From assembly GCA_964545685.1 (NCBI GenBank), contig CAZJHB010000001.1, forward strand, positions 118,470 through 182,469: a stretch of 64,000 bases of DNA. Reading direction: 5' to 3'. Positions 58,622-64,000 of this stretch are shown here, piece by piece. The notes below the pieces were generated by a model. It had not been told where the DNA came from, ran no database searches, and was given only the letters and a program-made list of their open reading frames with translations. The translations under genes and the position numbers were made by a program. The stretch's first letter is position 1. Each line of letters opens with the position of its first letter. Source of the DNA: an uncultured Candidatus Peribacteria bacterium. Lineage in GTDB: Bacteria > Patescibacteriota > Gracilibacteria > BD1-5 > UBA6164.

Positions 58622-60070
58622 TTAAACTGCATTCGGCATGTATATATTTATAAATACAGATTTTTTGTCGAGTAAAACTTTCTGTGGAATATATATAACT
58701 TTGTCATATGAAGCAACTCTAAGACGTCCATTATAATAGTTATCACCACATGCATAATAATTATTATCAACTGTTGTAATATACATATAATATTTATCTA
58801 TATGAATACACGTAATTTTTTCTTCGATTAAAACTTTTTGTGGAATACGTAAAACTTTATAACGTGAACCAACTCCAAGTTGCCCATACTTATTACCACC
58901 ACATGCATAAACTTTATTATCAATTGTTATAAAATATGTTCGATGCCAACTTGATTCAATACTTTTGATTTTTTCTTCGAGTAAAACTTTTTGTGGAATA
59001 TACACGACTTTATCATATGAACCAACTCCAAGTTGCCCATACTTATTACCACCACATGCATAAACTTTATTATTAATTAGTATAAAATATGTTTGGTCAT
59101 AATTTGATTTAATATCTTTAATTTTTTCTTTAATTAAAACTTTTTGTGGAATACGCACAACTTTATCATATGAACCAATTCCAAGATGCCCATATTCATT
59201 ATTGCCGCATGCATAAAATTTATTATCAATTGTTATAAAATATGTTCGATGCCAACTTGATTCAATATCTTTGATTTTTTCTTCGAGTAAAACTTTTTGT
59301 GGAATGCGTAAAACTTTATAACGTGAACCAACTCCAAGTTGCCCATACTCATTCTTACCACATGCATAAACTTCATTATCAAATGTTATAAAATATGTAT
59401 GGTTATATTCTAATTTAGTATCTTTAATTTTTTCTTTGATTAAAACTTTTTGTGGAATACAAACAACTTTGTCATATAAACCAATTCCAAGATGTCCATA
59501 TTCATTATCACCACACGCATAAACTTTATTATTATTTGTTATAAAATATGTACGATAATATATTAATTTGATATCTTTAATTTTTTCTTCGATTAAAACT
59601 TTTTGTGGAATATACACAACTTTATCATATGAACCAATTCCAAGCTGCCCACATGCATTATTACCACATGCATAACACTCATCATCGATTGTTATAAAAT
59701 ATGTTTGATTATATTTTAATGCAATAATATCTTTGATTTTTTCTTCAATTAAAACCTTTTGTGGAATGAGTTCAAAATCGCTGTCTGAACCAATTCCAAG
59801 ATATCCATCATGATTATTACCACATGCATAAACTTCATTATCAAATGTTATAAAATATGTTTGGTTATAGTCTGATTTAATGTCTTTAATTTTTTCTTCG
59901 ATCAAAACTTTTTGTGGAATGTGAATAACTCCACTATATAATCCAGTTCCAAGATGTCCATAGCTGTTATTACCACATCCATAATCTTTATTTGAATATG
60001 TTTTATAAAATTGATTATTATAAATTTCAGATACTGTATTGCAAGAATTATAAGTATTGATAAACGGCAT
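58622..60070 (-). CDS. RCC1-like repeat protein, array member 1 (nine ~51-aa repeats)
   Basis: The track ORF start at 60097 is the ATG inside AAAAATGATTTTTTTT, which overlaps the TGA of the upstream gene. The paralogs start at MPFINTYNSC, so the start is 60070. Repeats read YACGNN.YG.LGIGSYDKVV.IPQKVLIEEKIKDIK. Confidence 0.85.
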   Translation of the reverse strand: MPFINTYNSCNTVSEIYNNQFYKTYSNKDYGCGNNSYGHLGTGLYSGVIHIPQKVLIEEKIKDIKSDYNQTYFITFDNEVYACGNNHDGYLGIGSDSDFELIPQKVLIEEKIKDIIALKYNQTYFITIDDECYACGNNACGQLGIGSYDKVVYIPQKVLIEEKIKDIKLIYYRTYFITNNNKVYACGDNEYGHLGIGLYDKVVCIPQKVLIKEKIKDTKLEYNHTYFITFDNEVYACGKNEYGQLGVGSRYKVLRIPQKVLLEEKIKDIESSWHRTYFITIDNKFYACGNNEYGHLGIGSYDKVVRIPQKVLIKEKIKDIKSNYDQTYFILINNKVYACGGNKYGQLGVGSYDKVVYIPQKVLLEEKIKSIESSWHRTYFITIDNKVYACGGNKYGQLGVGSRYKVLRIPQKVLIEEKITCIHIDKYYMYITTVDNNYYACGDNYYNGRLRVASYDKVIYIPQKVLLDKKSVFINIYMPNAV

Positions 60071-60093
60071 TACAAGTTTTGAAGTAAAAAAAA

Positions 60094-61491
60094 TCATTTT
60101 TCAATTTTTTGTGGAATACACACGACTTTATCATATGAACCAATATCAAGATGTCCATTGATATTACTGCCACATACATATACTACATCATTAATTGCTG
60201 TAAAATATGTTTTTTCATAATATATTTCAATATTTTTAATTTTTTCTTCGATTAAAACTTTTTGTGGAATACAAACAACTTTGTCATGTGAACCATTTCC
60301 AAGTTGCCCAACCGCATTATTACCACATGTATAAATTTCATTATTAAATGTTATAAAATATGTTCGATACCAATCTAATTTAATATCTTTAATTTTTTCT
60401 TTAAGTAAAACTTTTTGTGGAATACAAACAACTTTATCATATGAACCAATTCCAAGCTGCCCATAATGATCAATACCATATGCATATAATTCGTTATTAC
60501 TTGTTATAAAATATATTAGATCCTTATATATTAGAATATCTTTAATTTTTTCTTCGATTAAAACTTTTTGTGGAATATATACAACTTTATTATGTGAATC
60601 AACTCCAAGTTGCCCGTAATTATTATTACCACATACATATACTTCATCATTAATTGTTGTAAAATATGTTCGTTCACATTTAAAGTTAATATCTTTGATT
60701 TTTTCTTCAATTAAAACTTTTTGTGGATTATATATATATTTATCATGTGAACCAATTCCAAGTTGCCCAGCATTATTATCACCACACGCATAAACTGTAT
60801 TATCGATTGTTGTAAAATATGTGTGATAATAATCACCTTTAATATTTTTAATTTTTTCTTCGATTAAAACTTTTTGTGGAATATATACATCTTTATCATG
60901 TGAACCAATTCCAAGATGTCCATCGTCATTATCACCACATGCATAAACCTCGTCATTAACTGTTATAAAACATGTTTGTTTACAATTTAATTTAATATCT
61001 TTAATTTTTTCTTCAAGTAAAACTTTTTGTGGAATACACACAACTTTGTTGTGTGAACCAATTCCGGCCAGACCATTCTCATTATCACCACATGCATAAA
61101 CCTCGTCATTAACTGTTATAAAACATGTTTGTTTACAATTTGATTTAATATCTTTAATTTTTTCTTCAAGTAAAACTTTTTGTGGAATATGCACACCTTT
61201 GCCATGTGAACCAATTCCAAGCTGCCCATTATAATTAATACCACATGCATATAATTTATTAGTAATTGTTATAAAATATGTTCGATGCCAAATTGATTTA
61301 ATATCTTTAATTTTTTCTTTGAATAAAACTTTTTGTGGAATACGCACAACTTCTTTGTCTGAACCAATTCCAAGTTGCATATTTCTATTATCACCATATG
61401 CATAAACTTTATTTGAATATATTTTATAAAATGTATTATTATAAATTTCAGATATTATATCACAAGAATTATACGTATTAATAAACGGCAT
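60094..61491 (-). CDS. RCC1-like repeat protein, array member 2
   Basis: MPFINTYNSCDIISEIYNN followed by nine repeats (YAYGDNRNMQLGIGS ... YVCGSNINGHLDIGS). Confidence 0.85.
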   Translation of the reverse strand: MPFINTYNSCDIISEIYNNTFYKIYSNKVYAYGDNRNMQLGIGSDKEVVRIPQKVLFKEKIKDIKSIWHRTYFITITNKLYACGINYNGQLGIGSHGKGVHIPQKVLLEEKIKDIKSNCKQTCFITVNDEVYACGDNENGLAGIGSHNKVVCIPQKVLLEEKIKDIKLNCKQTCFITVNDEVYACGDNDDGHLGIGSHDKDVYIPQKVLIEEKIKNIKGDYYHTYFTTIDNTVYACGDNNAGQLGIGSHDKYIYNPQKVLIEEKIKDINFKCERTYFTTINDEVYVCGNNNYGQLGVDSHNKVVYIPQKVLIEEKIKDILIYKDLIYFITSNNELYAYGIDHYGQLGIGSYDKVVCIPQKVLLKEKIKDIKLDWYRTYFITFNNEIYTCGNNAVGQLGNGSHDKVVCIPQKVLIEEKIKNIEIYYEKTYFTAINDVVYVCGSNINGHLDIGSYDKVVCIPQKIEK

Positions 61492-61515
61492 TACAAGTTT
61501 TAAAGTTAAAAAAAA

Positions 61516-62913: not shown

Positions 62914-62937
62914 TACAAGTTTTAAAATTAAAAAAAA

Positions 62938-63264
62938 TCATTTTTTAATTTTTTGCGGAACACGTACTTTTGCATCATCTGAACTAATTCCAAGCTTCCC
63001 AATACTATTATCACCACATGCTTAAACTTCATTATTAATTGTTAATAAAAATGTTTGATCGCATTATGATATTATATTTTTAATTTTTTCTTCAATTAAA
63101 ACCTTTTGTGGAATACACGCAACTTTGTTACGTGAACCAATTCCAAGTTGCCCACATTCATTATTAACACATGCATAAACTTTATTTGAATATATTTTAT
63201 AAAATGTATTATCATAAATTTCAGATACTATATCACAAGAATTATACGTATTGATAAACAGCAT
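62938..63264 (-). pseudogene. decayed RCC1-like array member (two blades, two in-frame TAA)
   Basis: Track ORF 63064..63264 (MLFINTYNSCDIVSEIYDN...KNIIS*). The same frame continues as CDQTFLLTINNEV*ACGDNSIGKLGISSDDAKVRVPQKIKK*. The stops replace E (GAA) and Y (TAT) of the intact paralog string NIISECNQTFLLTINNEFYAYGDN. Confidence 0.8.
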
Positions 63265-63290
63265 TACAAGTTTTAAAGTTAAAAAAATTA

Positions 63291-64000
63291 TTATTTAATT
63301 CGTTCTGGAATACGTATAACTTCGTTACTTGACCTATCTTCAATTTGTCCAGACTCATTATGACCGCATATATAAACTTTATTATTAATTGTTTTAAAAT
63401 ATGTTATGTTATAGTGGATTTTAATGTTTTTGATTTTTTCTTCGATTAAAACTTTATGTGGAACACGCGCATATTTATTATGTGAACCAATTCCAAGTTG
63501 CCCATATGTATTATCACCTGATGCATAAACTTCGTCATTAATTGTTATAAAATATGTATGATAATTATCACTTTTAATACATTTAATTTTTTCTTTGATT
63601 AAAACTTTTTGTGGAATATATATAACTTTATTGCGTGAACCAACTCCAAGTTGCCCATGACGATTATAACCACATATGTAAACTTTATCATTAATTGTTG
63701 TAAAATATGTTTGATAATCTTCTAATTTAACATCTTTAATTTTTTCTTTAAGTATAACCTTTTGTGGAATATTTACATAATTGTCATGTGAACTAATTCC
63801 AAGTTTTTTAAATTTATTATTACCACACGCATAAAATTCATCATTAATTGTTGTAAAATATGTTTGTTGACATTTAAATTTAATATCTTTAATTTTTTCT
63901 TCAATTAAAACTTTTTGTGGATTATATATATATTTATCATCTGAACCAATTCCAAGTTGCCCAGCATTATTAGCACCACATGCATAAACTGTATTATCGA
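63291..64000 (-). CDS. RCC1-like repeat protein, array member 5 (C-terminal part; start beyond the right edge)
   Basis: Own translation is open from 64000 to TAA (plus-strand tta at 63291-63293): ...DNTVYACGANNAGQLGIGSDDKYIYNPQKVLIEEKIKDIKF...VYICGHNESGQIEDRSSNEVIRIPERIK*. Not in the track because it runs off the window. Confidence 0.85.
   Translation of the reverse strand, partial: DNTVYACGANNAGQLGIGSDDKYIYNPQKVLIEEKIKDIKFKCQQTYFTTINDEFYACGNNKFKKLGISSHDNYVNIPQKVILKEKIKDVKLEDYQTYFTTINDKVYICGYNRHGQLGVGSRNKVIYIPQKVLIKEKIKCIKSDNYHTYFITINDEVYASGDNTYGQLGIGSHNKYARVPHKVLIEEKIKNIKIHYNITYFKTINNKVYICGHNESGQIEDRSSNEVIRIPERIK

Follow-up and report, generated by a model that had tools for sequence, protein, structure and literature searches.

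A Terminal Array of RCC1-like β-Propeller Genes, with Nine Blades Predicted, in a Very Divergent Giant Virus

The last 5.4 kb of a 64,000-nucleotide (nt) stretch of contig CAZJHB010000001.1, the stretch called here the window, is filled by minus-strand genes that repeat one another and that are themselves built of repeats. What kind of protein do these genes encode, how far does the repetition extend, and what might a virus gain from it? The segment from 58622 to 64000 is a genuine head-to-tail array of RCC1-like β-propeller genes and is the inner part of a longer terminal multigene array. The source is a very divergent giant virus (Nucleocytoviricota-like) with a linear-looking genome of roughly 185 kb. 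A previous interpretation made from the letters of the window (the sequence-only reading) had described five minus-strand copies separated by 23–26 nt, and the open reading frames (ORFs) and translations agree with it on number, coordinates and spacing. The copies are numbered from the outside inward, g0 to g9, and those in the window are as follows.

58622–60070, minus strand: g9, the innermost array gene; intact, 482 amino acids (aa) from MPFINTY; a short leader precedes nine RCC1-like blades of 51 aa, and the C-terminal tail is divergent.
60094–61491, minus strand: g8; intact, 465 aa, nine blades; the protein used for AlphaFold2 modelling.
61516–62913, minus strand: g7; intact, 465 aa, nine blades, of which blades 3, 4 and 6 are mutual near-duplicates.
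62938–63264, minus strand: g6, a pseudogene; leader, one blade closest to g7 blade 7, and a terminal half-blade, with two in-frame TAA codons.
63291–64000, minus strand: g5, the window-edge copy; an open frame with the last 4.6 blades (the 3′ part), cut by the edge of the window.

The repeat unit and its family

The spacers between these copies measure 23, 24, 24 and 26 nt. An ORF finder places the start of g9 at 60097 (491 aa); the conserved start MPFINTY lies at 60070, which is the start that had been chosen from the sequence and which gives the 482-aa product. The 60097 start is a chance ATG within the ATGA that carries the upstream stop codon. The g6 pseudogene, inside which the ORF listing of 57–64 kb holds a 66-aa ORF (63064–63264, minus strand), is an in-register deletion derivative.

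Tandem Repeats Finder returns a period of 153 nt, with 8.5–8.9 copies per gene, 77–79% matches and 0–2% indels. At the protein level the motif YACG occurs nine times in each intact gene with a spacing of exactly 51 aa, apart from one unit of 52 aa. The 153-nt unit and the nine repeats of about 51 aa are thus as the sequence-only reading had them, and its repeat consensus matches the one derived here from 45 full units, YACGDNEYGQLGIGSHDKVIYIPQKVLIEEKIKDIKIDYYQTYFITIDDEV. Each array gene opens with a 28-aa leader that amounts to a degenerate half-blade; the 51-aa blades come next, and there is no additional domain. The G+C content of the window is 20–28%.

The assignment to RCC1, which had been made from the repeat core, is borne out by profile searches. 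In the three intact genes Pfam RCC1 (PF00415) matches with E values of 1e-60 to 7e-63 (202–210 bits against a cut-off of 21.7) and Pfam WD40_RLD (PF25390) with E values of 8e-79 to 9e-70 (236–266 bits against a cut-off of 150), so that both stand well above their gathering thresholds; for g9 alone the two values are 1.2e-60 and 8.2e-79. For the G-x-N-x-x-G-Q-L-G core, G4, G12 and P23 are invariant in the 45 full units, while N6 is present in 44, L11 in 42 and G9 in 40. The closest solved proteins by sequence are UVR8, RPGR, HERC2, HERC1 and RCC1, with RCC1 scoring below UVR8, RPGR and HERC2. All five are seven-bladed.

The array proteins resemble the RCC1-like domain (RLD) proteins (RCC1, UVR8, RPGR, HERC1/2, WBSCR16) in this core, in their four-stranded blades of about 51 aa, and in strong profile and Foldseek matches. 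They differ from them in several respects. The A-x-G-x-x-H motif of the strand A/B hairpin is absent: the consensus of 119 homologs reads I-x-x-G-x-x-H-x-x-A-L at this place, and the array units have IKDIK, five hypervariable residues and TYFIT. No insertion resembling the β-wedge, whose role in RCC1 was reportedly described by Renault et al. in 2001, is present in the array genes examined, every blade being 51 aa long (one is 52). RCC1-type exchange factors of Ran carry such a wedge in one blade, along with catalytic acidic and histidine residues on the face that binds Ran, and attach to chromatin by a basic N-terminal tail. The N-terminus of the array proteins, MPFINTYNSCDIISEIYNN, has no basic cluster, and Pfam finds no F-box in the array proteins, in which just 28 residues precede the first full blade; an accessory domain of any kind is likewise lacking. 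Finally, whereas the solved RLD proteins, and the RCC1-like domain superfamily as described, have seven blades, the intact array genes have nine strictly periodic repeats each, their paralogs range from one-blade remnants to ten blades, and their predicted fold superposes on seven-blade rings with a template-modelling (TM) score of only about 0.5.

The predicted ring and its variable face

AlphaFold2 was run on g8 with an alignment of 119 homologs. The mean predicted local distance difference test (pLDDT) is 94.3, the predicted TM score (pTM) is 0.88, and all five models reach a pLDDT of at least 93. The model contains 35 strands arranged as nine A-B-C-D blades, with a weak inner strand in the first blade and disorder in residues 1–14. 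A Foldseek search of the PDB with this model retrieves seven-bladed RCC1-like domains at E values of about 1e-30; the superposition gives TM scores of 0.44 by query and 0.47–0.54 by target, with a root-mean-square deviation of 10–12 Å over about 365 columns. Since a seven-blade ring with two spare blades should give a target TM of about 0.9, a single wider ring is favored. From the pTM, the strand count and the poor superposition on seven-bladed domains we infer that the intact proteins form a closed nine-blade ring. The sequence-only reading had flagged nine blades against the canonical seven as unusual, and the predicted structure sides with nine.

Closed nine-blade rings are viable, as eIF2A, eIF3b and the designed propellers Cake and Scone show, although these are WD40-type or designed proteins, unrelated in sequence to RCC1 repeats. 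Among the reported nine-bladed propellers we found no RCC1-like domain.

The 45 units differ from one another in an orderly way. Near-invariant columns are Y-A-C-G, N6, G9, L11-G12, G14-S15, the stretch P23-Q-K-V-L-I-x-E-K-I-K-x-I (block IPQKVLIEEKIKDIK) and T-Y-F-I-T; hypervariable columns are 5, 7, 8, 16–21 and 37–41, with an entropy of 2–3.3 bits. On the strands of the model, the hypervariable columns fall at the end of strand C and the start of the C–D loop, at the end of the C–D loop and the start of strand D, and at the end of strand A and the A–B turn. The D strand, the D–A loop (LIEEK) and strand A, which make up IPQKVLIEEKIKDIK, are nearly invariant. In a four-stranded antiparallel blade the A–B and C–D connections lie on one face of the propeller, and the B–C and D–A connections lie on the other. 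Because the variable columns map to the A–B and C–D connections, variation would be concentrated on one face, an assignment that rests on strand order and propeller topology.

The ratio of nonsynonymous to synonymous differences (pN/pS) amounts to 1.0 for the hypervariable columns and to 0.59 for the rest, values that are noisy, coming as they do from paralogous repeat units in a genome of 25% G+C with a strong AT codon bias. Between g7 and g8, 302 of 1398 aligned sites differ, spread almost evenly over the three codon positions (119/83/100), and not one difference creates a stop. In a simulation of random substitution at this divergence 11–19 stops are expected, and none of 2000 runs was free of stops. 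It follows that the intact genes are under selection to remain open. The predicted isoelectric points (pI) of the three intact proteins are 5.1 (g7), 6.6 and 8.5 (g9).

Two inverted arrays, their recombination and their viral setting

An exact-protein look-up identified longer contigs that carry the window: JGI 3300029449|Ga0243128_1000001 (183,087 bp), ENA ERZ23495434 scaffold_42 (94,276 bp) and an NCBI contig (186,637 bp). On the ENA contig, whose locus is called L001 below, the right edge of the window corresponds to position 4647 on the opposite strand, and the right-hand array extends past it to about ten copies of 1–9 blades each, as follows.

L001 ~745–899: g0, a decayed remnant of one blade.
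L001 923–1552: g1, 209 aa, four blades; its stop is mutated from TGA to TGG.
L001 1539–2783: g2, 414 aa, eight blades, intact.
L001 2806–3285: g3, 159 aa, three blades, an open ORF.
L001 3308–3940: g4, 210 aa, four blades, an open ORF.
L001 3963–5356: g5, nine blades, frameshifted after the first blade (73 aa, N-terminal, plus 399 aa).
L001 5383–5709: g6, pseudogene, two blades, two in-frame stops.
L001 5734–7131: g7, 465 aa, nine blades, intact.
L001 7156–8553: g8, 465 aa, nine blades, intact.
L001 8577–10025: g9, 482 aa, nine blades, intact.

The array stops about 750 nt short of the end of the ENA contig. That end, L001 1–735, is visibly higher in G+C than the rest and contains a 134-aa ORF without a Pfam match; foreign DNA seems to be joined on here as a chimera, the true right terminus being probably unassembled.

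A second array of the same family occupies positions 1–10008 of the JGI contig on the plus strand, with ORFs of 305/341, 128, 491, 248, 212, 363, 521, 278 and 507 aa; the paralogs examined there have 7 to 10 blades. The two arrays are mutually inverted, and transcription of each runs from its contig end toward the interior. We considered a terminal inverted repeat and rejected it: the outermost remnants and their flanks differ between the two ends, as in inverted paralogous arrays.

The outer limit on the left is touched by another assembly. ENA ERZ23495300 scaffold_1 (226,565 bp; its locus is called L003) is a perfect palindrome about its exact midpoint, L003 3730/3731 or contig position 113,282, with 100% complementarity across the 3 kb tested to either side and no loop. 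The center of the palindrome falls 345 nt beyond the left end of the JGI contig. The palindrome has arisen either from reading through a covalently closed hairpin telomere or from a fold-back in amplification or assembly. Between this center and the first RCC1 remnant are about 350 nt of AT-rich non-coding DNA (L003 3731–4080), in which a unit of about 55 nt (GATATAATCATTCGATGAAAAAATAAATCTTATAGTTGCAAGACATTACATGT...) is repeated in tandem about 2.5 times; this could be a subtelomeric repeat.

With the internal genes included, there are about 20 RCC1-like genes, which take up roughly 10% of the contig. Three further RCC1-like genes had been claimed elsewhere in the window. Two of these stand; the other is below threshold.

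47464–48456, minus strand: dispersed divergent RCC1-like gene, 330 aa, about 5–6 blades, at most 39% identical to g8; Pfam RCC1 E = 2.7e-21, BLASTP E = 3e-46.
33235–34227, minus strand: dispersed divergent RCC1-like gene, 330 aa, at most 34% identical to g8; Pfam WD40_RLD E = 3.9e-41, BLASTP E = 6e-38.
4904–5221, minus strand: doubtful single-repeat remnant with one G-N-x-x-G-Q-L-G motif; RCC1 E = 0.028, 15.4 bits, under the 21.7-bit cut-off.

The two dispersed genes score above the gathering thresholds of PF00415 and PF13540 and below that of WD40_RLD, and their identity to the array genes is 34–39%.

Relatives were sought among 5.8 billion proteins. The close ones (52–100% identity) are paralogs from assemblies of the MUDA16-1 sample series, on the same virus contig or on alternative assemblies of it; the next-best matches are at most 33% identical. 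In IMG/VR no relatives were found, either with g8 or with the Rpb1 homolog described below. The RCC1 expansion thus appears, by sequence comparison, to be lineage-specific as far as public data reach, as the sequence-only reading had proposed.

That reading had also called the family recombination-prone, and several patterns bear it out. Copies differ by whole blades, from one to nine in the right-hand array, and all blade deletions preserve the 51-aa register. When the blades of g7, g8 and g9 are compared one by one, DNA identity is 62–84% with no diagonal, that is, with no positional orthology; the lack of a diagonal indicates that these blades were reshuffled or homogenized after gene duplication. 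Near-duplicate blades occur within each of the three genes. Blades 7–8 of g2 are 100% identical to blades 3–4 of g4, and blades 3–4 of g5 match blades 4–5 of g8 at 98.7% and 94%. Leaders and spacers define two subfamilies, the outer g1–g5 (MPFxxPYYSC) and the inner g6–g9 (MPFINTYNSC), and g5 is a hybrid, with an outer-type leader and inner-type blades.

The two ends also share sequence. A 345-nt tract at 59736–60080 (minus strand; 10 nt of spacer and the first 335 nt of g9) recurs without a single difference in the left array, in its outermost intact gene, the two copies being inverted and about 177 kb apart. It was found by exact-match extension against L003 and a further locus, L004; BLASTN with a 93% identity filter merged it into a longer alignment of lower identity. 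The flanks of the tract are resolved alike in all three assemblies. It carries a single-base variant, which in each assembly is present in both copies, so that the copies co-vary. ENA scaffold_10358 (L006, 5.8 kb, SAMN06140899) carries the outer left array with the same variant (Val for Gly, NKDY[V/G]CGNN) as the g9 of that sample. The tract would indicate gene conversion or recombination between the arrays, and its co-varying copies fit a true repeat under gene conversion; a collapse of the assembly graph would look identical.

Promoter-like signals are built into the repetition. The window holds 51 copies of the octamer AAAAATGA where 25 are expected, and a count of 51 is not attained in any of 100 shuffles. 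The octamer lies 24–34 nt upstream of the ATG in 18 of 59 window ORFs (~30%); examples are at 57750–57757 (minus strand), 58355–58362 (minus strand), 37049–37065, 40774–40798 and 7589–7614. In divergent gene pairs, two copies stand back to back between the genes. Judged by position and frequency, AAAAATGA looks like the main promoter box of the virus, probably of early type. The mimivirus early-promoter octamer is said, in Suhre et al. of 2005, to be AAAATTGA, from which AAAAATGA differs by one base. The mimivirus AAAATTGA motif is also mentioned in PMC9512402. In the array the boxes are placed as follows.

60094–60101, minus strand: box of g9, at −31 from the ATG; its TGA is the stop of g8.
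61516–61523, minus strand: box of g8, at −32; its TGA is the stop of g7.
62938–62945, minus strand: box of g7, at −32; it overlaps the terminal TGA of the pseudogene g6.

The conserved spacer reads TGA-T8-AACTTTAAAACTTGTA-ATG. Array genes end in ...CAA AAA ATT AAA AAA TGA, so the codons for QKIKK-stop double as the promoter-like box of the neighbor. Since the preceding gene uses the TGA of the box as its stop codon, each unit of gene plus 23–26-nt spacer carries the start signal of its downstream neighbor. Upstream of g6 the box is degraded to AATAATAA. Upstream of g4 it reads AAAATTGA, and upstream of g2 AAAAATGG, which coincides with the loss of the g1 stop. The change of that stop from TGA to TGG both extended g1 into the start of g2 and spoiled the AAAAATGA box of g2, an illustration of the coupling of stop and box. 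By analogy with mimivirus, early, gene-by-gene transcription of the array genes is a plausible expectation. No account of a terminal head-to-tail array with such a stop-codon/promoter overlap turned up in the searchable literature.

The rest of the window fits the giant-virus context in which the array had been placed. Alongside the shared AAAAATGA box, genes with Pfam matches include an Rpb1 homolog, SNF2- and DEAD-type helicases, an AAA ATPase, a Ulp1-like protease, MYG1 exonuclease, ADP-ribosylglycohydrolase, a YqaJ-like nuclease and a ParB_N-domain protein; many ORFs have no Pfam match. The Rpb1 homolog (50195–54271, plus strand, 1358 aa) shares only about 25% identity with the best matches from the 5.8 billion proteins, archaeal A′ subunits scoring about as well as giant-virus Rpb1, and is about 150 residues shorter than the best-matching giant-virus homologs. 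Against solved structures it scores 208 bits with eukaryotic Pol II, 162 with African swine fever virus (ASFV) and 74 with vaccinia. An affiliation with poxviruses or ASFV, which low G+C, terminal gene families and a possible hairpin had suggested, was set aside as unsupported by these Rpb1 scores. The virus appears to be a member of a deep, undescribed lineage.

Other genes of the window may be noted. Cellular-type enzymes lie among the ORFans at 41561–42766 (minus strand), 11156–12157 (minus), 8966–9925 (plus), 28187–28948 (plus) and 48489–49070 (minus), listed respectively as F420-0:gamma-glutamyl-ligase-like, MYG1 exonuclease, ADP-ribosylglycohydrolase, ParB_N-domain protein and NUDIX hydrolase. 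Two genes inward of the array, 56304–57731 (minus strand) encodes an unusual fusion of 475 aa, with an N-terminal DEAD/ResIII helicase motif region and a RING-type zinc finger (residues ~298–338).

What the arrays may do

We propose that the arrays are a terminal "accordion" family of stand-alone binding propellers, with a function inferred from comparison; on balance we think this probable, with considerable room for doubt. In-register unequal homologous recombination between 153-nt units would add, delete and shuffle blades, and recombination and gene conversion would act within genes, between genes and between both ends, as the sequence patterns suggest. The nine-blade proteins would fold into closed propellers wider than the canonical ones. 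Their variable face would bind different proteins, probably of the host, and their conserved face would maintain the fold or a common partner. The family would then be an arms-race accordion like the terminal repeat-protein families of poxviruses, ASFV or Bodo saltans virus.

The best comparison is with Bodo saltans virus, in which 148 ankyrin-repeat genes of 4–17 repeats each form peripheral directional tandem arrays that were interpreted as the product of an accordion-like arms race (PMC5871332). In the present family, as in that of Bodo saltans virus, the poxvirus ankyrin and kelch genes and the ASFV multigene families, one finds peripheral directional tandem paralogs with a variable number of repeats, fresh duplicates beside decayed copies, direct and inverted end-to-end duplications, and a protein-binding repeat. 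The present arrays consist of same-orientation tandem paralogs at the contig periphery, with signs of ongoing duplication, deletion and recombination, pseudogenes included. There are differences. Ankyrin repeats form an open solenoid, while the RCC1-type blade closes a ring, so that repeat number alters ring size and not length. The scale is much smaller here, about 20 genes and ~10% of a genome of roughly 185 kb, and both arrays are directed inward. Array proteins also lack an F-box, PRANC or other partner domain.

RCC1-like proteins are a known part of giant-virus gene pools. In BFVD the best match to the array proteins is a 557-aa "regulator of chromosome condensation" of Pithovirus LCPAC302 (A0A481Z8D7; TM by query 0.63, 449 columns), and further matches come from Marseillevirus LCMAC102, Harvfovirus, Hyperionvirus, Orpheovirus (F-box plus RCC1) and jumbo phages. 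These proteins, among which we count mimivirus qu_366, are likewise viral RCC1-like propellers, often with several paralogs per genome; they are 17–29% identical to the array proteins, and many carry an F-box, which the array proteins do not.

Two other roles deserve to be weighed against a family of binding propellers. Array proteins might manipulate the Ran cycle, either by mimicry of RCC1 or in the way of the Legionella effectors LegG1, PpgA and PieG, binding of Ran or its regulators serving to rewire nucleocytoplasmic transport or microtubules. Membership of the RCC1 superfamily is clear, and RCC1 is among the nearest solved relatives, if below UVR8, RPGR and HERC2. Moreover, the Legionella RCC1-repeat effectors target the Ran cycle even though they lack the residues essential for guanine nucleotide exchange factor activity (PMC7157520). 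We nevertheless regard a Ran-directed role as unlikely: no blade has an insertion comparable to the RCC1 β-wedge, the A-x-G-x-x-H hairpin motif is replaced by the most variable segment of the unit, the N-terminus is without a basic tail, and a single conserved target would not account for at least ten diverging paralogs with a pI from 5 to 8.5. A part in virion structure or genome packaging is suggested by mimivirus qu_366, by annotation a "regulator of chromosome condensation", which is enriched in the proteome of the genomic fiber and may, as proposed there, assist in DNA folding (PMC9512402), and by jumbo-phage homologs annotated as "DNA condensation protein". Structural proteins, however, are usually single-copy, conserved and central, whereas the array genes form a terminal set of many copies that diverge fast and differ in length, pseudogenes among them; qu_366 is expressed late (PMC9512402), whereas the box of the array genes would, by analogy, be of an early-type kind. 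We give this role, too, little credence.

Two rival explanations deny the arrays a specific function or a full existence. In one, amplification is largely neutral or selfish, a recombination hotspot expanding and decaying without a specific protein function. Remnant, pseudogene, frameshifted and 3–4-blade copies are what it would lead us to see, and so are a loop pN/pS of ~1 and differences spread near-evenly over codon positions. It sits poorly with three ORFs of 465–482 codons and one of 414 that have stayed open at 20–25% DNA divergence and 25% G+C, where 11–19 stops would be expected; with fifteen-residue blocks that are nearly invariant while loops vary; and with a box that is kept upstream of intact genes and lost upstream of the pseudogene. 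We judge it quite improbable. The other explanation is that short-read assembly inflated or scrambled the copy number of a repetitive region. The source is a metagenome assembly, a sister scaffold of 226 kb forms a perfect palindrome, a chimeric join is suspected at one contig end, and exact repeats exist, one of 278 nt at the 3′ ends of g2 and g4 (outside the window) besides the 345-nt match between the ends. Within 58.5–64 kb, however, no exact direct repeat is longer than 63 nt and the units average 76% DNA identity, which means that short reads can place the array units; the places at risk lie beyond the window or are short. The JGI and ENA assemblies, which were produced separately, agree over 7 kb but for 1 base, and an assembly from a second sample reproduces the left array with 17.5 kb of identical sequence. 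An artefact is unlikely for the array in the window, and as an account of the whole we consider it very improbable indeed.

The proposal of an accordion of binding propellers has its own weak points. Five of the ten right-array copies are remnants, pseudogenes or short ORFs of 3–4 blades, so that part of the right-hand array is decaying. A loop pN/pS of about 1 would arise under relaxed constraint no less than under positive selection. The contig ends are taken only provisionally for the genome ends, given the seemingly chimeric ENA end and a palindromic scaffold that may be a fold-back. A first AlphaFold2 run, on a shallow alignment of 10 close paralogs, gave a pLDDT of 52.8 and was not used, and closure of the nine-blade ring is a deduction from the model and not something seen directly. 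The role in host interaction, which the sequence-only reading had put forward for a protein-interaction scaffold, rests on analogy.

It is tempting to go one step further. These paralogs may form a natural series of RCC1-type propellers that diverged recently and have ring sizes of 7, 8, 9 and 10, nine being the commonest intact form, produced by in-register recombination of the 153-nt unit. We offer this tentatively, as an idea that could well be wrong. It would require that the RCC1 blade tolerate closure at several symmetries, and the intact ORFs of 3–4 blades might assemble as oligomeric rings.

Terminal repeat-protein accordions and viral RCC1-like paralogs are known already, and no new category of system is opened here. 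What stands out is the nine-blade periodicity with paralogs of 7–10 blades, the inward arrays at both ends with their 345-nt identity, and the overlap of stop codon and promoter box. The arrays offer a clean, small example of an accordion made from a closed-ring repeat, at both contig ends, in a lineage whose Rpb1 is about 25% identical to known ones, with gene family, promoter box and recombination tracts all readable from the sequence. A confirmed nine-blade RCC1 ring would interest structural biologists, and the nine-blade prediction, together with the 7–10-blade paralogs, provides testable material on the gain and loss of β-propeller blades. If the series of ring sizes is real, it would include the first nine-bladed RCC1-like domain and would be a living example of change in propeller blade number.

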